A stretch of DNA of 64,000 bases from an uncultured Candidatus Binatia bacterium (GTDB taxonomy: Bacteria > Desulfobacterota > Binatia > Bin18): positions 192,001 through 256,000 of the forward strand of contig OZ243961.1 of the NCBI GenBank assembly GCA_965214605.1, in the 5' to 3' direction. Below, one piece after another: positions 15,256-26,785 of the stretch (its first letter is position 1; the number at the start of each line of letters is the position of its first letter). The position numbers were made by a program, and so were the translations under genes. The notes below the pieces were generated by a model. The model saw only the letters and a program-made list of their open reading frames with translations. It searched no databases and was not told where the DNA came from.

Positions 15256-15556
15256 AGTGTTAGGTGCCGAGGAAGCCCAACAGAACTAAGGCTCTTTTCG
15301 GAGGAAAACACAGAGAAGTCCGAGCATGGCACCGAGTTGGCCTATCTCCAGAATAAGGGGTTGTCGGCTAGATCTTCTTTGCTCGGTCAGTGCTGCGCCA
15401 ACAGGTGGGCTCCATAAATAAACACGACTCCGGCCAGCGTTGCCAAAGGCAGGAGGCGGGAATGGCTAGCATCATGGGCGGCTGGCAGGAGACTACTCGC
15501 CCCGAGATACAGAAGCACGCCAGCAAACCATCCCAGCAGTAAGGCTAACTGCGGCG
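15256..15556 (+). repeat. 301-bp direct repeat, copy 2
   Basis: Matches 9714-10014; contains the functional ZIP 3' end. Confidence 0.95.
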
Positions 15557-16127
15557 TGGCGAGCGTCACATAGGCTTGGAGCCACACGCCGGAGAGAGGT
15601 GCGAGGGCGGTCAGCCCCAACATTGCGGTGGTCGCCCGGGGCGAGTGCCGGGTGCCCAACATCAGGCTCGCCACGCTGGCACCGTCGGCCAGTTTATGGA
15701 GAGTCACTCCTAATGCGATCGCCCAGCCGATATGGTCGTGAATGTGAAAGCCTTTCCCAATGGCAAATCCGTCAATTAGGCTGTGGACCATAATGCCGAG
15801 GGCTCCCAGCCCTCCGGCATGGGAGACATGGGCATGATGGGCTTCTCGCTCTTCGGGGGGGTCTCGGTCGTGGGTGGCATACTCAAGCACGTAAAAACAC
15901 AAAAATCCGCATACGCAGGCGAGCTGCAGGTGGTGGTACTCAAGGAGACTATCGGTCGAGTTCAAGAGCGCTAAGGCGTCGGGCAAGATCTCCACTAAGG
16001 CCCCGGTCATCAGGGCCCCGGCGCAGAAGGCAAACAGCACGCCTTGATAAGACCGAAAACGGAGGGCCAGCACTCCGCCGACTAGGGTGAGGACGCACGT
16101 AGCGCCTGCAATCCAGAAAGCAGTCAT
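15387..16127 (-). CDS. ZIP family metal transporter
   Basis: Multiple TM segments, His-rich loop, HSLIDG and HKLADG metal-site motifs. Confidence 0.9.
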   Translation of the reverse strand: MTAFWIAGATCVLTLVGGVLALRFRSYQGVLFAFCAGALMTGALVEILPDALALLNSTDSLLEYHHLQLACVCGFLCFYVLEYATHDRDPPEEREAHHAHVSHAGGLGALGIMVHSLIDGFAIGKGFHIHDHIGWAIALGVTLHKLADGASVASLMLGTRHSPRATTAMLGLTALAPLSGVWLQAYVTLATPQLALLLGWFAGVLLYLGASSLLPAAHDASHSRLLPLATLAGVVFIYGAHLLAQH

Positions 16128-16184
16128 ATGAGGAAGCAGACTATACTACTGCGACAGAGTTGTAAGTAGGGTGCTCTGCCCGTG

Positions 16185-16868
16185 TCACGCTGCTGGCTCC
16201 TGCGTACCAAACAGCCCTTCCTTGCCCTCTTTGACTAGCCAGGGCAGTATGCTCAAAGCGGCGGCCGGGTCTGCCCACCACCAACCTAGGAGCGCATTGG
16301 CTCCCAGACCGAGCAGGAGTGTGAATGACAAATACGAACAGGCGAGGGTTTCTTTTGCCTCGGCCCGCAGAGCCTGACTCCCGACGACAGCCGCCGCCCG
16401 AAGTTTTCCAAGGGACACGAGCGGCATAATTGTCAGTGAGAGGCCAGCCAGGACAATACCAATGAGGCTTTCGTGTGGGGCTTCCCGCTGCCACAATATC
16501 CAGCCGGCCTGGCCTAGCACGTACACGGCCAGAGCAAAAAACGAGACGCCTACAAATTGGTGTAACCGACGGTCTGCGCGTGCTATGCGTTCTATGGCAA
16601 CGCCTTGCAGCTCAAGCGCGAGACGCCACAAGAGGACCCCGGCGGCGAGGAGTTCAATCAGGCTGTTGAGGCCAAACTCAATCAGCGCAATACTCGCCGC
16701 TTCGGTACCGGCCCACAGCGCAATCACCGCTTCGACGATGTTATACAGCATCGTCGCAATAACGAGGCCAAGGCCAATCCGTAGCCAGCGCTCGGACGGC
16801 GTGCGGGGGGGAATCCCGACCGCAGCTCCGGGTCCCATTTTTCTCCACCTCCACCAACCATTATCCAC
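16185..16868 (-). CDS. CDF-like cation transporter (short, TM-only type)
   Basis: YNIVEAVIAL, FGLNSLIE, ALRAEAKETLACSYLS, WWADP; start uncertain. Confidence 0.75.
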   Translation of the reverse strand: MDNGWWRWRKMGPGAAVGIPPRTPSERWLRIGLGLVIATMLYNIVEAVIALWAGTEAASIALIEFGLNSLIELLAAGVLLWRLALELQGVAIERIARADRRLHQFVGVSFFALAVYVLGQAGWILWQREAPHESLIGIVLAGLSLTIMPLVSLGKLRAAAVVGSQALRAEAKETLACSYLSFTLLLGLGANALLGWWWADPAAALSILPWLVKEGKEGLFGTQEPAA

Positions 16869-17721
16869 TGGTCCTATACCGCCGAACTATCCACCCGCCC
16901 ACCACTAGCAGGCAGAGACACGCTGCAGCCATCTGTCCAGGAGGATAGTCGTAGTAGTTGGCTAGGACAAAGGCTGACACGTCTGTTACCAGCGAGACGG
17001 CCGGGGCGATCACAAACATTTGCCGACTTTCCCGACAGACATTTTTGGCCGCCAGGGCCGGGAGCACCAGACTGGCAAAGCTGAATACTACGCCGGAGAC
17101 ATGGATGGAAAACCCGACCGCCAGCCCCAGCCAGACCGCAATCAGGCCGTTCCACACCTCTACCCGCAAGCCGACCGCACGTGCCATTGTCGGGTCGATA
17201 ACCAGCAGCAGCGCTTGATAGGAATATCTCCACAGCATTATAGCCGTGCCCAGCAGCATGGCGGTAAAAATCCACACGTCGGTCCGTCTGGCGCCGATGA
17301 TGGTGCTGGATGACAGTCGGTTGATCTCTTCCATACCGATGGGGCTGTGGGCCATCAGCAGGATGGCTAGGCTGACCGACACCAGAAAGACCCAGCCGGT
17401 AAGGGCTTCGTGGGTTTCTTGGCCGCCACCCCGGTTGCCGCTGGCCGTCAGCAGGGCGGCCAATACGGCAAACACGCCGCCCATTGCCGAGTGGAAGAGG
17501 TCGGATCGCCACCAGCTGTGGATATCCTGACTGATTACACCGCCCAGCCATATACCGATAGCAATGCCCAGCATGGAAGCCTGAGAGACCGCCGCGCCAA
17601 TAAAAATCTGATCTCGGGCCACGACGAGGACGCCGATAAGGGACAGCAGCAGGCCGATCAGCCAGCCAGACACATAGGCGTAGTGAAACAACGGCCAGGA
17701 GGCGAGAAAGTTGTCGATCAC
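16861..17721 (-). CDS. Metal ABC transporter permease (ZnuB-like)
   Basis: Hydrophobic, GVLVVARDQIFIGAAVSQ, DPTMARAVG; operonic with the ATPase and binding protein. Confidence 0.85.
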   Translation of the reverse strand: MIDNFLASWPLFHYAYVSGWLIGLLLSLIGVLVVARDQIFIGAAVSQASMLGIAIGIWLGGVISQDIHSWWRSDLFHSAMGGVFAVLAALLTASGNRGGGQETHEALTGWVFLVSVSLAILLMAHSPIGMEEINRLSSSTIIGARRTDVWIFTAMLLGTAIMLWRYSYQALLLVIDPTMARAVGLRVEVWNGLIAVWLGLAVGFSIHVSGVVFSFASLVLPALAAKNVCRESRQMFVIAPAVSLVTDVSAFVLANYYDYPPGQMAAACLCLLVVGGWIVRRYRTSG

Positions 17722-18485
17722 CCCGAACTCCCGGCCGCGGACAGGGGGTTGGTGTCGGCTTGGACCTGAGGCAGCCGCCCTGCTGTTTGACCGTAGAGCT
17801 GTTCAAGCCTGTCAGCGGTAAGCATCTGAGCGCGTGTCCCAGCTGCCAGCGTCCCGCCGGTGATAAACCCGATGTGGGTGGCGTAGCGGGAGGCAATTGT
17901 CAGCTTGTGGGTAACAAACAGAACTGTGTTGCGCTCCTCGGTGTGAAGGGCGGACAGGGTTTGCAGGAAAGCATCCTCCGTAACCAAGTCGAGATGATTG
18001 GTCGGCTCGTCTAGGAGCAGGAGGGTCGGACGACGCACCAGAGCTCGGGCTACCAGGACCCGCTGGCGCTGGCCGCCGGACAGCGACCAGTAGTCCTTGT
18101 CAGCCAGGTGGCCCAGCCCCATTTTGTCCAAGGCCCAGATCAAGCGCCGGCGCCGCTGGGCCCGAGCCACGCGGATGCCCACCAGGCCCAGCAGCGCAAA
18201 CTCACCGACTGTCATGGGCAGGCTGGGGTTGATCTCGCAGTCCTGGGGGACAAAGCCAGTGCACTCCAGGTGGCCCAACCGAGGAGGAAACACCAGCCGT
18301 CCGGCCTGGGGCTGAAGTATGCCCAGCAGGCCGCGTAACAGGGTGGTTTTGCCAGTCCCATTCCGGCCCAGGAAGCACCAGAACTCGCCGGCGTGGACGG
18401 TCAGATTCACGTCGGCGAGAACGACCTTGTGTCCGTAGCCAAGGGACAAGGACTGGGTTTGCAGGACAGTCTCAGGACCTTCCAT
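17718..18485 (-). CDS. Metal ABC transporter ATP-binding protein (ZnuC-like)
   Basis: GRNGTGKTT, LSGGQRQR, LLLDEPT. Confidence 0.9.
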   Translation of the reverse strand: MEGPETVLQTQSLSLGYGHKVVLADVNLTVHAGEFWCFLGRNGTGKTTLLRGLLGILQPQAGRLVFPPRLGHLECTGFVPQDCEINPSLPMTVGEFALLGLVGIRVARAQRRRRLIWALDKMGLGHLADKDYWSLSGGQRQRVLVARALVRRPTLLLLDEPTNHLDLVTEDAFLQTLSALHTEERNTVLFVTHKLTIASRYATHIGFITGGTLAAGTRAQMLTADRLEQLYGQTAGRLPQVQADTNPLSAAGSSG

Positions 18486-18487
18486 GC

Positions 18488-18901
18488 CTAGGGAGCCGGT
18501 GTTTCGGACGCTGAATTGAGACAGGTCCGGCACAGGTGTCGGTTCAGCAGGTGGCTGGTAGCCAGAATGACAGCGCCGACACTCACTAGGGTTATCTCTA
18601 ATCTTCCTTCGGCAAACAGGCGACTAGCGGTAATTGCTGCCACTGCCGCGGCTAAGAGGAAGAAGGGTTGGCCGCCTCTATGGAGACGGAATCCCCAGCA
18701 CAGGTTGCTCAGGGCCAGGATGATGGCAGAGCTCAACAGGACAACTTCTGTCATTTCGTCTGCCAGAAAACTCAGGCTGAGGAATGGTAGGACTGCTACC
18801 AGAAGCGGAGTGAGCAGGCAATGGGTAGCACACACCAGAGATAACCCGGCTCCGAACTGGTCAAGCCATAGGCAAAAAGGGGCAACGCCCCGTTGGCTCA
18901 T
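18488..18901 (-). CDS. MerC-domain membrane protein
   Basis: LDQFG..LSLVCATHCLLTP, four TM segments, C-terminal H..NRHLCRTC. Confidence 0.75.
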   Translation of the reverse strand: MSQRGVAPFCLWLDQFGAGLSLVCATHCLLTPLLVAVLPFLSLSFLADEMTEVVLLSSAIILALSNLCWGFRLHRGGQPFFLLAAAVAAITASRLFAEGRLEITLVSVGAVILATSHLLNRHLCRTCLNSASETPAP

Positions 18902-19929
18902 GTCGCGCCCCCCAAGACCGAGGCGAGCTGTGTGACGTTATAGTCAAGCATGGCCAGATAGGTGTCGATGCCGGGCCGGGAAGCCACCTGGTCAGCCATG
19001 TTGACGATAGTTACGCTGGTATTGCTGGCCACAAACTCAGCGTAGCGGGAATCATAATAGGCCACGGCTAGAATAGCTTTGACCTGGTTCGTCTGTATCA
19101 GCTCAATGACAGTCTGCATGTGGCTGGTTGTTGGCGGAATCCCGGGTAGGGGTTCGAGGTAGGCAAGGATGTTGAGGCCGAACAGATGGGCAAAATAGGG
19201 CCAAGCGTTATGATCGCCAACGATATTTGCCCCTTCATACGGCTGCATCATGCCTAGCCAGCCGGCCAGCAGGGCTTCTTCGCCCTGACTATCAAGGAAC
19301 TGGACGAGCTGGCCGCGTTCGACCAGCAGGGCTAGCTTTTCAAAGTCGTACTTATGAAAGAGCGCTTCACCGACCAACGCGACGCCAAGCCGCTGGCGGA
19401 AGTCCTGGTAGCGCCGGGCAAAGTCCTCGCTGGCGCCTGGACGCAGGGTTGACAGCCGATCGCGGAGTAAGCCGGCAACGCGTAGGCCATTCACAGGATT
19501 CAGCAGATAGTGGGGATTGCCCAGGGGATGAACATCGCCTAGAGACCGATCGACTGTTGTGGTTGGAATCTCAAGCGGGGTAACGACAACCGAGGCGTCG
19601 ATATATCCTGGTCTGCCGGTCTGCAACCGGGCGTTCCGCGAACTGGACAGCAAGGGCGGGGCCCAGCCGGTTTCTAGGTCAAGGCCAATCTGAACGTAGG
19701 CGTCGCACTGGTTCAGGGCTTTAATAAAGCTCGGCTTGGGGACAACAAAATGGGGATCTTCTGTGCCTTTGGCAAACACGGTGACGGCGACCTGTTCGCC
19801 GCCGATCTCACGGACGAGGCTGCCGAGTTCGGGCACGGTCGCGCAGACCTGAAGTGGCTGGGCGTAGGCCAGAGCGGACACACTAAGACTCAGGATAAAA
19901 CTGCAAATGACAGGGCGGATGATGAACAC
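18898..19929 (-). CDS. Metal ABC transporter substrate-binding protein (ZnuA/TroA-like)
   Basis: EDPHFV, GDVHPLGNPHY, EPLPGIPPT..H; GTG start at 19929 after AGGAGG. Confidence 0.9.
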   Translation of the reverse strand: MFIIRPVICSFILSLSVSALAYAQPLQVCATVPELGSLVREIGGEQVAVTVFAKGTEDPHFVVPKPSFIKALNQCDAYVQIGLDLETGWAPPLLSSSRNARLQTGRPGYIDASVVVTPLEIPTTTVDRSLGDVHPLGNPHYLLNPVNGLRVAGLLRDRLSTLRPGASEDFARRYQDFRQRLGVALVGEALFHKYDFEKLALLVERGQLVQFLDSQGEEALLAGWLGMMQPYEGANIVGDHNAWPYFAHLFGLNILAYLEPLPGIPPTTSHMQTVIELIQTNQVKAILAVAYYDSRYAEFVASNTSVTIVNMADQVASRPGIDTYLAMLDYNVTQLASVLGGAT

Positions 19930-19939
19930 AGGAATCCTC

Positions 19940-21622
19940 CTAGAAGTTATGGGCCGGATGCGCTCCATATAGCCACTCGAAGCCCAGCCATACGCTGTGG
20001 GCGTTGGAGTCGAGATGCGAGGCATCATCAAAGTTGTACTGGAGGCGAAGGCGCGAGAACTCTGAGGGGCGCCACGAGAGAAGTGGGGAGAGGCGGTGGC
20101 GATCATTCCGAAAGGGGTCGTTCCGTCGGCCGCCAATGCTGGGACCGCTCCCGCCAGCGTAGTCATAGCGCAGGCCGGCCGCCCAACCGTAGCGAAAGCC
20201 GTACAACAGCTGGGTGTACAGACCCCAGTCTTTCAGGGTCCGACCATACAGAATTTCTTCGTCTTCTTCATGAGTGTAGCGGTCGGCGTGAAAATCGCGC
20301 CGCATGATCTCAGTCTGCCAGCTCAGGAAGGGCCAGCCCCGGAAGTTACCGTCGGGGTTCCATCGCCATTTCATATCCAGGCCGTAGATCCACGTATCGC
20401 CGTCGTCGCCGGTGGCGTTTGGCCCGTACAGCCCTGAGACGCCGAGCACTCCGGTGATGTTGTCGGTGAGATTGATTGAGTTGTTCCAGCGGGCCAGATA
20501 GACAAAGTCGCCAAACCCGTCAAAGACATTCCGGCCGGCTGGACGACAGCCGATCAGGGCGCACTCTAGGGCGTGGCCGTTCTCCGCAGTATGGCCGTGG
20601 TCTTCGTCGTGATCGCCCAGGTGGTCTTCGTCATGATCGTCTAGGTGGTCTTCGTCATGATCGTCTAGGTGGTCTTCGTCGTGATCGTCTAGGTGGTCCT
20701 CGTCATTACTGGCGACGTGATTCTCCTCGTGGCCGTGCCCTCCACCGGCGTGGCTGTGGCGTTCGCCTCGGAAGCTGACCATCTGGACCCCGTTGGCATT
20801 CTGCATGCCGAAGTGCAGCTCCGAGAACCACGGGGTCGGAGTGAGCCACGAGGTGCGGAAGCCGGTCTGGCGCATGCCGTCGCCGCCGAACAGACGCGAG
20901 TTTACGACCGGTTGGTCGATCCAGTCCCACTGGTGAGGGTGCTGGGTGTTGATCTGACCGAATTCGGTAAAAAAGTGACCAACTTCCAACTGAAGGTTAT
21001 AGGGCAGGGCGGTGCTTGTCAGAAAGGCTTCTTCCAGCTCAACAATGGTTTCGCCTTCGACCGGGTCAATGGCGCTGATCAGATACATCTCTCCCCGAAA
21101 ATAGGGGTCAACCGCGGCGCTCAGAGACAACTCGGCCTGCCCCAGAGTGAAGCCGCGTCTGTTCGGTTCGTGCGCCCCGCCCTGGATGGTAGACAGAGCT
21201 TCGCCTTTTTCACTGGAGCCGCCAGCGTAAAATAAGACATCGGCCGCAATATCGATAAGACGCAGCTGCGCTCCGCCGCCCAGGGGGCGCGACCACAGAC
21301 CCTCCGGCCGTGCCCTGAGCGATGGCTGACGGCCTTCGGCCAGGCTCTGCCGAATGGCTTTGTCGAGCGGAGAGTCGAGCTGCTCGGTAAAAGCACCCGC
21401 TTCGGTCTGTTGTTGGATGCGTTCCTCATTGGTCGCGCCCTCTCGCTGCATTTTGAGAATCGTGTTTTGTAGATGTTGAACGGTTTCTTGTAGGCTCTGA
21501 ACTTGCTCCTTGAGGGCTTCCATCTCAGCGGCCCGCACACTCGTGGCAGCGAGTACACTTCCCCCCAAGACGGCGGCTCCACAAACAAGCCGGCACAGTA
21601 TGTTTGTATATATCATCCTCAT
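19940..21622 (-). CDS. Outer-membrane beta-barrel receptor with a His/Asp-rich insert (zinc-uptake type)
   Basis: Signal peptide, coiled coil, AVDPYF, HPHQWDW, PSEFSRLRLQY and terminal GAHPAHNF; precedes the metal ABC genes. Confidence 0.75.
   Translation of the reverse strand: MRMIYTNILCRLVCGAAVLGGSVLAATSVRAAEMEALKEQVQSLQETVQHLQNTILKMQREGATNEERIQQQTEAGAFTEQLDSPLDKAIRQSLAEGRQPSLRARPEGLWSRPLGGGAQLRLIDIAADVLFYAGGSSEKGEALSTIQGGAHEPNRRGFTLGQAELSLSAAVDPYFRGEMYLISAIDPVEGETIVELEEAFLTSTALPYNLQLEVGHFFTEFGQINTQHPHQWDWIDQPVVNSRLFGGDGMRQTGFRTSWLTPTPWFSELHFGMQNANGVQMVSFRGERHSHAGGGHGHEENHVASNDEDHLDDHDEDHLDDHDEDHLDDHDEDHLGDHDEDHGHTAENGHALECALIGCRPAGRNVFDGFGDFVYLARWNNSINLTDNITGVLGVSGLYGPNATGDDGDTWIYGLDMKWRWNPDGNFRGWPFLSWQTEIMRRDFHADRYTHEEDEEILYGRTLKDWGLYTQLLYGFRYGWAAGLRYDYAGGSGPSIGGRRNDPFRNDRHRLSPLLSWRPSEFSRLRLQYNFDDASHLDSNAHSVWLGFEWLYGAHPAHNF
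20597..20704 (-). repeat. 24-bp tandem repeat, about 4.5 copies, encoding (DEDHLDDH)n
   Basis: Units such as gtggtcttcgtcatgatcgtctag begin at 20597, 20621, 20645 and 20669, with a partial unit at 20693. Confidence 0.95.
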
Positions 21623-21802: not shown

Positions 21803-22150
21803 TCAGGCACGGTAGGCCCGCAACCGGAGTCTGGAAACGGATATGAATGACCGAACAACAGGGGGAGCACGTGGGCTGCCAGAGCACAAATAGTCGGCCG
21901 CAGCGTGTTGCTCGGCCCTAATGGATAGACACAGGGTGGTGTACAGATAAACGACCGCAGTTGGGATATGGACGAGAAGGGCAGGGTTCTGTCCTCCTGT
22001 GACGCACAGCACACAATCTTGCTGGGCGAGACTGCCTGCGGGCTCGCTGTGAATATGAGAAACTCTGGCGGAGGACACGCACAACAGAACGAGCAGACTC
22101 AGCAGGGCTAGGCTTTTCTGCCAGGATACTAGGTGCTGTTTTTGCCACAT
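21803..22150 (-). CDS. DUF2946/CruR-like leader protein (TM, HxH, CxxC, RAPP)
   Basis: MWQKQH...LALLSLLVLLC...SHIH...DCVLC...SPRAPP; first ORF of the operon, upstream of the OM receptor. Confidence 0.7.
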   Translation of the reverse strand: MWQKQHLVSWQKSLALLSLLVLLCVSSARVSHIHSEPAGSLAQQDCVLCVTGGQNPALLVHIPTAVVYLYTTLCLSIRAEQHAAADYLCSGSPRAPPVVRSFISVSRLRLRAYRA

Positions 22151-22158
22151 GGATACTA

Positions 22159-22191
22159 TTGCAATTCTATAGCAAGTACTTCCAGTGTCAA
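22159..22191 (-). promoter_or_regulatory. Sigma70 promoter overlapped by a Zur-like box
   Basis: Minus strand reads TTGACA-N16-TAGAAT; imperfect palindrome TTGCAA-N5-TAGCAA (22159-22175) covers the -10. Confidence 0.65.
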
Positions 22192-22303
22192 GAGGTTTGA
22201 AAGCAAAAGACGCCCGAATACAGGGGGAGCAAGGATGAAGTGTCCTCTTGCGAGTGCTGGGCAAGGTGTGACAGAACAGGCCCAGAGAAGAAAGGAGTGT
22301 GTG

Positions 22304-23377
22304 ATGCCGGACTCACAGTTTGACAAAGCAAAAGCTGAAGCTTTTTCCAAAAAGATGCTCAGTATCCTCAACGACGCCAGTGTGGCCCAGATGATGGTCA
22401 TCGGCCATCAGGTCGGCCTCTTTGACACGCTGGCCAGCCTAGCCCCATCCACGAGTGAACAAATCGCGAAGGCAAGTAACCTAAACGAGCGCTATGTGCG
22501 CGAGTGGCTCGGCGCCATGGTGACCGGCCGGATCGTGGACTATGATCCGGCTGACAAAACCTACCGGCTCCCGCCTGAGCATGCCGCCGCTATCACACGG
22601 GCAGCGGGACCAAGGAATCTGGCGGCGATGATGCAAATGATCCCGATGGTGGCCAGAGTTCAGCAAGGCATTATTGATAGTTTTCGCGCCGGGGGTGGCG
22701 TACCATATTCGGCCTACGGGGACTTTCATAAGCTGATGGCCGAGATGAGCGGAGCCGTGCATGATGTGTCACTTGTTGACATCACTCTGCCCCTCATTTC
22801 CCAGATAGTCGACCGTTTACGCACCGGCATCGACGTTCTCGACGTCGGCTGTGGCAGTGGTCACGCGGTGAATCTGATGGCCAAGGCGTTTCCACACAGC
22901 CGCTTTACTGGTTACGATTTCTCAGAAGAAGGTATCGTTGCGGGCCAGGCGGAAGCGCAAGAGTGGGGCCTCACCAACGTCAAGTTTGCCGTCCAAGACG
23001 CGACCGAACTAGGCGATGTCAACCTGTACGACTTCATTACCGCTTTCGATTCCATTCATGACCAGGCTCATCCTCGGGCCGTGCTCAAGGGGATTGCCGA
23101 AGCGCTGAGGCCTGACGGTACGTTTCTGATGGTGGATGTGAACAGCTCAAGCCATTTAGAGGAAAATCTCGACCACGTCTTGGGACCAATGATGTACACT
23201 GTCTCGTGTATGCATTGAATGTCTGTCTCATTGGCCCTCCGTGGTGAGGGTCTCGGGGCAATGTGGGGCAAACACAAGGCGTTGGAGCTGTTGAGCGAGG
23301 CTGGGTTTAGTCAGGTCACGATAAAAAACGTCAAGCAGGATATGCTGAATAACTACTACGTCTGTACCATGGGCTAG
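22304..23377 (+). CDS. wHTH + class I SAM methyltransferase with an in-frame TGA at 23216-23218 (selenocysteine candidate, otherwise a pseudogene)
   Basis: [22 protein letters not shown]; the frame continues past TGA as [21 protein letters not shown]...EAGF to TAG at 23377. Confidence 0.8.
23224..23260 (+). other. Candidate bacterial SECIS hairpin
   Basis: UGUCUC/GGGGCA lower stem, GGCCCUC/GAGGGUC upper stem, loop CGUGGU beginning 21 nt after the UGA. Confidence 0.5.
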
Positions 23378-23388
23378 AAGACAGGGCG

Positions 23389-24096
23389 TCACCGGTGAAC
23401 AGGTGGGTACTCGTCGCGCAAGATCGCGAGGTCATGCACCACCTGTTCAATCAAATCTGCCTCATCGCCCCGGTAGTAGACACGGATACGAAACTCCGGG
23501 TCAACGAGCACAAAACGGTCGCTGTGGACGATTTGTTCGAGCCTCTTAGCCGGTCCGTGGCCCGTATGAGACCCTTCTGGCCGCGCATTCATCATCGCTA
23601 GCTGAAAGCCGTCTCTGACCAAAGGCTGAACGACGTTCAGCTCACCGGTCAGAAAAACCCAGCGCTTGGAATCAGCGCCATACCTGTTGGCATAGTCCTT
23701 GAGTCGCTGCGGCGTGTCCCATTCCGGATCAACACTGAAAGAGACTAGCCGAACCGAGGGCTGGTCGGTCTCTTCAAGCCTGGTTTGTAGCTTTGCCATC
23801 TGGACCGACAGCAGAGGGCACACGCCGGGGCAGCGGGTAAACACAAAATTTGCCACCCATATACGGCCGGACAAAGACTGGCGACCGAAAGGCTGACCAC
23901 TATGAGCAAATAGGCGAAAGTCCGGGACAGTCCGGTGGACCGGTAAACGGTCCGGTGAGCTCGACAGCGATGGTGTTTCGAAGGTCTGCCATACCAAGAC
24001 GCCGCTCATCCCCAGCAGCACGACAAACAAGAGCCGCCACACGATTCTGAGGAGTGGCAGTGGAGTGAAGGAGACACTATTGCTTGGTGCATTCAT
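23389..24096 (-). CDS. SCO family copper chaperone
   Basis: N-terminal TM, FTRCPGVCP (CxxxC), SVDPEWD, HSDRFVLVD. Confidence 0.9.
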   Translation of the reverse strand: MNAPSNSVSFTPLPLLRIVWRLLFVVLLGMSGVLVWQTFETPSLSSSPDRLPVHRTVPDFRLFAHSGQPFGRQSLSGRIWVANFVFTRCPGVCPLLSVQMAKLQTRLEETDQPSVRLVSFSVDPEWDTPQRLKDYANRYGADSKRWVFLTGELNVVQPLVRDGFQLAMMNARPEGSHTGHGPAKRLEQIVHSDRFVLVDPEFRIRVYYRGDEADLIEQVVHDLAILRDEYPPVHR

Positions 24097-26335: not shown

Positions 26336-26785
26336 ATGAAGCCATCTCAGCCCTCTCATTCTTCGATGAGCGAAATACGGGCCAGTATCCGCGCCGCCGG
26401 ACTGCGCGGCACAATGTCTCGGATTGCGGTGTTGAGCTATCTACAGTCGGTGACAACCCCGCTTAGCCATGCTGAAATCTTTAACGCGCTGGAGGAGCAA
26501 GGATTTGATCGGGCCACGATCTATCGTAACCTAGTTGATCTCACCGAGGTCGGCCTTCTGGTGCGGACGGATGTTGGGGACCATGTGTGGCGTTTTGAGC
26601 TGCGTCGGAGTGGTCCAGATGGACGGCAAGCTGAGCACCCGCATTTCATGTGCACGGATTGTGGCGAAGTCTCCTGTCTTCCTGCAGTGAGCGTCAATAT
26701 AGACCCGCCAACAGCGGTGCCGCGTTCGGTGCGTGTTCAACAAGTCGATGTGCAGCTCAAGGGCTTGTGCGATCGCTGTACATAG
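26336..26785 (+). CDS. Fur-family transcriptional regulator (Zur-like)
   Basis: GLRGT..RIAVL, DRATIYRNL, HPHFMCTDCG, GLCDRC. Confidence 0.9.
   Translation: MKPSQPSHSSMSEIRASIRAAGLRGTMSRIAVLSYLQSVTTPLSHAEIFNALEEQGFDRATIYRNLVDLTEVGLLVRTDVGDHVWRFELRRSGPDGRQAEHPHFMCTDCGEVSCLPAVSVNIDPPTAVPRSVRVQQVDVQLKGLCDRCT

Follow-up and report, generated by a model that had tools for sequence, protein, structure and literature searches.

Introduction

Rv2258c of Mycobacterium tuberculosis, for which we know of no substrate, joins an N-terminal winged-helix domain to a class I S-adenosylmethionine (SAM)-dependent methyltransferase domain, and its structure has been solved (PDB entries 5F8C, 5F8E and 5F8F). We describe here a gene of the same family from a different phylum, carried at positions 22304-23377 of a 64,000-nucleotide stretch of DNA (positions 192,001 to 256,000 of contig OZ243961.1, assembly GCA_965214605.1; hereafter the window) from an uncultured Candidatus Binatia bacterium. 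Rv2258c shares with this gene its two-domain architecture, over the full length, and the motif around the site of interest, but it has a cysteine where the Binatia gene has an in-frame UGA. From the sequence evidence set out below, 22304-23377 very probably encodes one 357-residue selenoprotein, the UGA at 23216-23218 being read as selenocysteine (Sec). The computed support for this comprises the pairing of TGA with Cys codons in homologues, conservation of the TGA, coding constraint after it, RNA-level constraint on a downstream hairpin, and the presence of the Sec machinery. An initial annotation of the window had already put the gene forward as a candidate selenoprotein, an interpretation to which the pairing, the conservation and the machinery lend support; the checks it proposed as possible refutations all turned out in its favour.

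In the available part of the RedM paper Rv2258c is counted among the structural homologues of RedM. Bacteria are credited with over 100 selenoprotein families in the available portion of PMC13326102, and the methyltransferase selenoproteins in the part of the PMC13188914 table at hand are ArsM, MGMT, MduS, the UXPK-star methyltransferase and two ArsM fusions.

An in-frame TGA in an Rv2258c-like methyltransferase gene

Read directly from the sequence, the open reading frame (ORF) that begins at ATG 22304 halts at TGA 23216-23218 (...YTVSCMH*), and the same frame then runs on for 52 codons, with no other stop or lesion, to TAG 23375-23377, its product ending ...NNYYVCTMG. With the TGA translated as U the protein has 357 residues and the UGA codon becomes residue 305, so that the read-through frame described in the initial annotation was borne out in full. 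Because the frame 5' of ATG 22304 is closed by stops, the gene contains a single in-frame TGA. The features of the gene are listed below, where genes with TGA at this site are called Sec-forms (those with a Cys codon are Cys-forms), and SECIS denotes a selenocysteine insertion sequence.

22291..22297, + strand: Shine-Dalgarno-like AAAGGAG, 6 nt before the start codon; homologues begin at the same residue
22304..23377, + strand: full gene, 357 codons including one UGA, plus the TAG stop (PDB 5F8C match, AlphaFold2 model)
22376..22600, + strand: Rv2258c-like winged helix-turn-helix domain, residues 25-99 (Pfam PF21320)
22823..23305, + strand: class I SAM-dependent methyltransferase domain, residues 174-334, spanning the UGA (Pfam PF13847)
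23207..23209, + strand: codon of Cys302, first residue of C-M-H-U, present in all 16 distinct Sec-form genes
23216..23218, + strand: UGA very probably read as selenocysteine (Sec305); TGC/TGT in 33/33 readable no-stop loci, TGA in 18/18 Sec-clade genes compared
23219..23374, + strand: the 52 codons after the UGA, which complete helix 294-311 and encode helix 322-332 plus strands 335-342 and 349-356 (model secondary structure; ratio of nonsynonymous to synonymous change, dN/dS)
23220..23274, + strand: possible lower stem, 23220-23231 with 23263-23274, weakly supported (constrained fold, -19.9 kcal/mol)
23233..23252, + strand: putative SECIS upper stem-loop, 7-bp stem GGCCCUC/GAGGGUC and loop CGUGGU (folding, conservation, synonymous constraint)

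Pfam assigned residues 25-99 to the winged-helix domain PF21320 (E 1.1e-35; 122.1 bits against a cut-off of 24.1) and residues 174-334 to the methyltransferase domain PF13847 (E 7.8e-24), the latter match running across the TGA; further Pfam methyltransferase matches included PF08241 and PF13649 (62.5 bits, cut-off 27). SAM binding and methyl transfer are predicted, what is seen being the glycine-rich motif VLDVGCGSG at residues 178-186. The read-through protein aligns with the Rv2258c crystal structure 5F8C over residues 11-354 (E 8.5e-121), and an AlphaFold2 model built from 20 sequences (predicted local distance difference test, pLDDT, 84.7) superposes on Rv2258c with a template-modelling (TM) score of 0.93 and a root-mean-square deviation of 1.6-1.9, at 53% identity. 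In the model residue 305 lies within helix 294-311, and the part encoded after the TGA completes this helix and adds another (322-332) together with strands 335-342 and 349-356 of the Rossmann fold; a 304-residue product would be expected to lack two core strands, since it is this part that supplies them. Among 20 aligned sequences residues S301, H304, C305, M306, S309, L310, A311, G314, G316, L317, G318, W321 and G322 were invariant and V308 was nearly so (at least 90%), in agreement with the family motif SxxHCMxVSLA.GG.GLG.MWG that the initial annotation had given. Sequence and predicted fold place the protein among the Rv2258c-like small-molecule SAM methyltransferases of the COMT type.

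Cysteine stands opposite the TGA in homologues

We took 56 loci (L021-L076) from related genomes and named genome records and read the codon aligned with the TGA, which was TGA in 20, TGC or TGT in 33, and unreadable in three (one contig end and two weak, unrelated matches). Every readable locus without a stop (33/33) has Cys opposite the TGA, and the suggestion that the TGA falls on a conserved Cys was correct. These Cys-forms come from Chloroflexota, Actinomycetota (including Mycobacterium and Rhodococcus), Acidobacteriota, Myxococcota, Nitrososphaera and other groups. Cys occupies the site in 79 of the 80 nearest full-length proteins, in two 33%-identical paralogues in the same genome and, in the alignment with 5F8C, in Rv2258c itself. 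The 20 TGA loci collapse to 16 distinct orthologous genes, and TGA stands at exactly this column in all of them and in four metagenome contigs; homologous Cys/TGA pairs, which the initial annotation had proposed to look for, do exist in other genomes.

The Sec-forms make up one Binatia clade

All of the TGA-locus records are labelled Binatia or Binatota, with one exception labelled Thermodesulfobacteriota, and of 41 related genomes 8 carry the TGA form; these belong to two genera of the window's family and, for one genome, to another GTDB family. A metagenome scan with the narrow codon pattern M-H-TGA-M-[S/T]-V-S-L returned five matches, four of them clade members at 82-85% identity and one a chance match. 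In a quick maximum-likelihood tree of 66 rows, which left out exact duplicates and rows with a matched stretch shorter than 300 residues, the 17 Sec rows formed one clade (Shimodaira-Hasegawa-like approximate likelihood ratio test, SH-aLRT, 99), to which the Cys-form metagenome protein P0042 was sister. This topology fits a single Cys-to-Sec change in the ancestor of one Binatia clade. Outside the clade no Sec-form was found in 401 Actinomycetota genomes, 77 of which have a homologue, and no stop occurred among the matches listed. Public gene calls are cut at the TGA, given that 40 of the best 120 protein clusters are exactly 304 residues long and end ...SCMH.

Two records of the clade are irregular. 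One genome (G002) holds a copy, recorded as both L028 and L043, that keeps the TGA, the hairpin and the downstream frame; unrelated, stop-containing sequence stands in place of the first 98 codons, those of the winged-helix domain, and the copy is either 5'-truncated or rearranged. The protein cluster P0040, an 84% identical Sec-clade member on a 3991-base contig, loses similarity after residue 297 and continues for 81 further residues, probably through a frameshift or assembly error just before the TGA.

A SECIS-like hairpin under synonymous constraint

The bacterial SECIS (bSECIS) model, as given in the available part of PMC13188914, has an apical loop of 3-9 nt on an upper stem of 4-16 bp, a G within the first two positions of the loop, usually with G or U next, a UGA-to-apical-loop spacing of 16-37 nt and a minimum free energy (MFE) of -7.5 kcal/mol or lower; the SelB-type loop consensus quoted there is N-G-[G/U]-N-N. 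Downstream of our TGA the 5' arm GGCCCUC (23233-23239), the loop CGUGGU (23240-23245, with G at loop position 2) and the 3' arm GAGGGUC (23246-23252) form a hairpin with a UGA-to-loop distance of 21 nt, and the 20 nt of the hairpin alone fold at -10.5 to -11.7 kcal/mol (57 nt, -21.8 kcal/mol). On all four counts, namely the 6-nt loop with its 7-bp stem, the loop G, the 21-nt spacing and the energy of -10.5 kcal/mol, it agrees with the model as given there.

The loop is CGUGGU or CGGGGU in all 12 aligned sequences, CGGGGU being found in part of the clade. Across orthologues 100% of the cells of the upper stem are paired, six of its seven pairs never vary and the remaining pair changes from G-U to G-C. 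The lower stem has 88.9% of cells paired, and 2 of its 11 pairs break in other orthologues. Thus, of the two-stem hairpin initially described, the upper stem-loop, 21 nt after the UGA, is present and conserved, but the lower stem is not kept in all orthologues.

Synonymous variation in the 16 genes is also depressed here. In codons 310-317 only 2 of 8 degenerate, residue-conserved codons vary, compared with 127 of 160 in the rest of codons 100-357 (Fisher p 0.002), and the two lowest of 161 sliding windows for synonymous variation are the two over the hairpin. Of its two variable synonymous sites, one is in the loop and the other is the G-U to G-C change.

The Sec machinery is encoded and the TGA recurs in independent data

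The genome (4.37 Mb, 99.99% complete) encodes selA (583 bits), selB (382 bits) and selD (388 bits), all above curated cut-offs, and a tRNA-Sec with anticodon UCA, so that a search for selA, selB, selC and selD finds all of them. Moreover, selD has its own in-frame TGA at the usual active-site position (...KAAG-U-AGK...).

The selD locus (L009; G000:C1:1898298-1902224, minus strand) directly adjoins selB, and the selD hairpin, in which a GGUCC/GGACC stem bears the loop GGC at 17 nt from the UGA, is comparable to that of the methyltransferase gene. The tRNA-Sec gene adjoins selA on the opposite strand (L013; G000:C1:3622980-3626070), unlike the arrangement in some lineages, where it is embedded in selB according to the available part of PMC13188914.

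A misread TGY codon was considered by comparison with independent data. Contigs of a run from another study match 23178-23328 with 0 differences and keep the TGA region intact; among the contigs of one further run none lay over 23168-23311. Marine metatranscriptome contigs of a relative (about 86-89% alike), within 23036-23377, span the TGA and the downstream part, a mere hint given that contigs cannot show transcription.

Weighing selenocysteine insertion against other readings

Pairwise Nei-Gojobori estimates among the Sec-forms gave dN/dS values of 0.03-0.125 in codons 306-357, which match the 0.06-0.13 of codons 100-304, with a synonymous divergence (dS) of up to 1.0-2.5 between the most distant Sec-forms. 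Changes after the TGA fall mostly at third positions, no further stop or frameshift follows it in the 16 distinct genes, and the internal codon is TGA in all 18 Sec-clade genes compared.

Several observations weigh against the selenocysteine reading or take force from the evidence for it. In the hairpin the number of pairs changed on both sides is zero, so that there are no compensatory changes, and a shuffle control returned the observed value. The 65 nt at 23216-23280 fold no better than shuffles (z = -0.87), and 3357 of 136137 genomic TGA triplets (about 2.5%, or 1 in 40) are followed by a hairpin at least as good. The hairpin is partly dictated by the conserved peptide A-L-x-G-E-G; because the Ala-Leu and Glu-Gly codons are mutually complementary, some Cys-forms (L044 and L049, from Chloroflexota) fold a similar 7-bp stem at the SECIS position, and the mean MFE of -22.3 for Sec-forms against -19.8 for Cys-forms comes with overlapping ranges. 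The terminal stop, TAG, is as invariant as the TGA (18/18), so that codon invariance alone cannot separate Sec from stop. An ATG lies immediately 3' of the TGA, which by sequence makes termination and restart possible. Finally, all 8 genomes that carry the TGA form have selA, but so do 39 of the 41 relatives, and since it is so widespread its co-occurrence is uninformative, being a necessary condition only. We take the hairpin to be supportive of Sec insertion and not decisive for it, and the self-complementary codons of A-L-x-G-E-G may have offered a pre-adapted site for a SECIS hairpin, easing the Cys-to-Sec switch.

One alternative is UGA read-through without selenium, in which a near-cognate Cys, Trp or Arg tRNA would decode the UGA and the hairpin would merely slow termination. 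The sequence does not tell which residue is inserted, and the missing covariation in the hairpin is what this explanation would allow; however, the genome encodes a full Sec machinery and a selD that itself relies on this device, the loop fits the SelB-type consensus N-G-[G/U]-N-N (as quoted in the available part of PMC13188914), and leaky decoding would waste most of the product of a strongly constrained gene, so that we consider it very unlikely. The gene could also be split, with termination at the UGA and restart at the adjacent AUG giving polypeptides of 304 and 52 residues that together form one methyltransferase. The position of the ATG directly after the TGA favours this, and purifying selection on the downstream frame would be expected here too, but the Met after the site is ancestral (H-C-M in the Cys-forms) and not a new start, the break coincides exactly with the Cys codon, none of 18 genes has TAA or TAG at the site although dS is above 1, the spacing to a SECIS-type hairpin under synonymous constraint is right, and, as the model has it, the cut would fall inside helix 294-311. 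We hold a split gene to be very unlikely.

A pseudogene, in which a nonsense mutation of the Cys codon left the downstream frame to decay, would require one change (TGC or TGT to TGA) and would suit both the public gene calls that end at 304 residues and the two irregular records, P0040 without similarity after residue 297 and the copy in one genome without its first 98 codons. Decay is excluded, however, by the low dN/dS downstream of the TGA (0.03-0.125 in 16 distinct genes, which are free of further stops and frameshifts), and a pseudogene is extremely unlikely. A sequencing or assembly error turning TGY into TGA is scarcely conceivable, given that 16 distinct genes of separate assemblies and four metagenome contigs have the TGA, as does a contig from a run of another study.

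Under selenocysteine insertion, a ribosome arriving at UGA 23216-23218 would meet the mRNA stem-loop at 23233-23252, which would recruit SelB with Sec-tRNA(Sec); selenocysteine would go in where relatives have cysteine, and translation would carry on to complete the methyltransferase fold with its last two helices and two beta-strands.

Gene neighbourhood

Within the genus the gene is flanked on one side by a block of ZIP, CDF and ZnuABC genes with two ORFs that have no Pfam match, and on the other by SCO1, FMN dehydrogenase and Fur genes. The metal-homeostasis genes of the window are as follows.

15387-20166, - strand: metal-homeostasis genes upstream, with a ZIP transporter, a cation-efflux protein and ZnuC/ZnuB/ZnuA-type ABC uptake
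23389-24096, - strand, and 26336-26785, + strand: downstream part of the metal-homeostasis neighbourhood, SCO1/SenC and a Fur-family regulator

A metal-linked operon was entertained and dropped, the neighbour order being confined to same-genus loci (L022-L025 and L033). Elsewhere the Sec-form loci are flanked by unrelated genes (hydrolase, luciferase-like, AMMECR1 and ABC). Conservation of neighbours ends at the genus, and the gene therefore seems to stand on its own.

The two ORFs without Pfam matches, at 19940-21622 (- strand, 560 residues) and 21803-22264 (- strand, 153 residues), adjoin the methyltransferase gene in same-genus loci at 70-77% and 56-61% identity, respectively.

Possible roles of residue 305

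In COMT-type enzymes the helix after strand 5 lines the methyl-acceptor pocket. Sec305, which directly follows His304 and comes one helical turn after Cys302, is inferred to lie on the helix that separates strand 5 from the C-terminal strands, so that by analogy it probably lines or borders that pocket. These enzymes have a His-Asp pair after strand 4 that we take to be the general base, and which corresponds here to H252-D253; His is found at position 252 in 122 of 144 family representatives with a residue in that column.

Sec almost always replaces a chemically active Cys, and for that reason the Cys-to-Sec switch points to residue 305, beside an often-conserved His, as a place to look for the chemistry of the family. 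The likeliest role, to which we give somewhat less than an even chance, is that Sec305 attacks the acceptor substrate as a nucleophile or binds it as a soft ligand. A less likely but still credible alternative is that Sec305 and Cys302 form a selenenylsulfide and that this redox pair gates activity. A broader proposition, and an unlikely one, is that residue 305 is a catalytic nucleophile or soft-atom ligand throughout the Rv2258c family, whose members, including the M. tuberculosis protein, would then not be plain O- or N-methyltransferases but would rely on an acceptor-pocket Cys or Sec, either for covalent catalysis or to bind metalloid or chalcogen substrates (arsenic, selenium, tellurium, mercury, thiol or selenol), as ArsM does.

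We surveyed the family, which numbers 3626 representatives at E 1e-10 or better, through 150 representatives clustered at 50% identity, of which 134 have a residue at column 305. It is Cys in 107 of these. Against an essential role for the residue, the other 27 are non-Cys, and although about ten of those look out of frame, some have Ser, Ala or Gly with His304 kept, an argument that methyl transfer as such does not depend on a Cys or Sec at residue 305. Cys302 is Cys in just 30 of 137 representatives and, in the 79 nearest Cys-forms, the position is Cys in 30 and Thr in 48; it is present in every Sec-form (16 distinct genes), yet not family-wide. Among the Sec-form loci compared, moreover, no conserved neighbour gene beyond the genus points to a substrate.

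Comparison with known selenoproteins and methyltransferases

In the literature searched we found nothing linking the Rv2258c family to selenoproteins, and the methyltransferase entries in the available part of the PMC13188914 table include no Rv2258c-like or winged-helix methyltransferase selenoprotein. In NCBIfam no model scored over its cut-off for the whole protein, none was significant for the 82 residues around Sec, and none matched the winged-helix part; scores and cut-offs were 36.6/263 bits for NF008823 (arsenite methyltransferase), 35.3/575 for NF041536 and 28.8/510 for NF041537 (its selenoprotein fusions), and 27/460 for NF047649 (UXPK-star methyltransferase). Titles and abstracts of the literature on selenocysteine in Binatia contain nothing on this gene, the Sargasso and Global Ocean Sampling (GOS) selenoprotein surveys, so far as their text was available, contain no such methyltransferase, and 'methyltransferase' is absent from one BSepDB supplement, the text of which is possibly incomplete. 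The 'methyltransferase' selenoproteins of Ostreococcus and Thalassiosira are named without family detail in the available text. Leaving MduS aside, the statement in the initial annotation that this is no established selenoprotein family fits its absence from NCBIfam and from the PMC13188914 table entries examined. The gene is very probably a genuine, conserved selenoprotein gene of a family that we did not find catalogued in the available parts of these sources.

As bacteria are already credited with over 100 families, one more is an incremental addition. Of practical consequence are a systematic mis-annotation in Binatia proteomes, in which the protein is cut at residue 304, and the pointer to Cys305, which bears on an uncharacterised family with thousands of members, among them a structurally solved M. 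tuberculosis protein. The case also shows that a peptide motif with self-complementary codons, such as A-L-x-G-E-G, can pre-adapt a site for a SECIS hairpin.

Beyond Rv2258c, TnmJ (PDB 8G5S) has the same fold and domain order (E 1.2e-47, TM 0.85) but no Cys at the site, its aligned stretch reading ...LYSVPAS.... The COMT-type enzymes DnrK, ASMT, MmcR, DsyB, DtpM, SgvM and RedM share the overall architecture with an N-terminal winged-helix dimerisation domain (Foldseek E about 1e-15 to 1e-16, TM 0.52-0.72) at just 14-18% identity to the Binatia protein. These fold matches are small-molecule O-, C- and S-methyltransferases, and to our knowledge none is known as Cys- or Sec-dependent.

Among selenoproteins, MduS is described in the available part of PMC13188914, in a row crediting Haft and Tolstoy 2025, as a 'methyltransferase domain-containing selenoprotein' with PF13649, a CxxU motif and two Sec. 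It has in common with the Binatia protein the PF13649 domain and the CxxU motif (here C302-M-H-U305), but it is listed with two Sec against one UGA here, and in that row no winged-helix domain is mentioned. As far as its table description goes, the MduS family may overlap with this one. The Sec-containing arsenite methyltransferase ArsM (NF008823) is tabulated in the same source before the heading 'Predicted with high confidence'. As described there, it resembles the Binatia protein in that Sec takes the place of a functional Cys in a class I SAM methyltransferase, and differs in having no winged-helix domain and a UxxG motif in place of CxxU. Within the limits of that description, ArsM shows that there is a precedent for Sec in a methyltransferase pocket.

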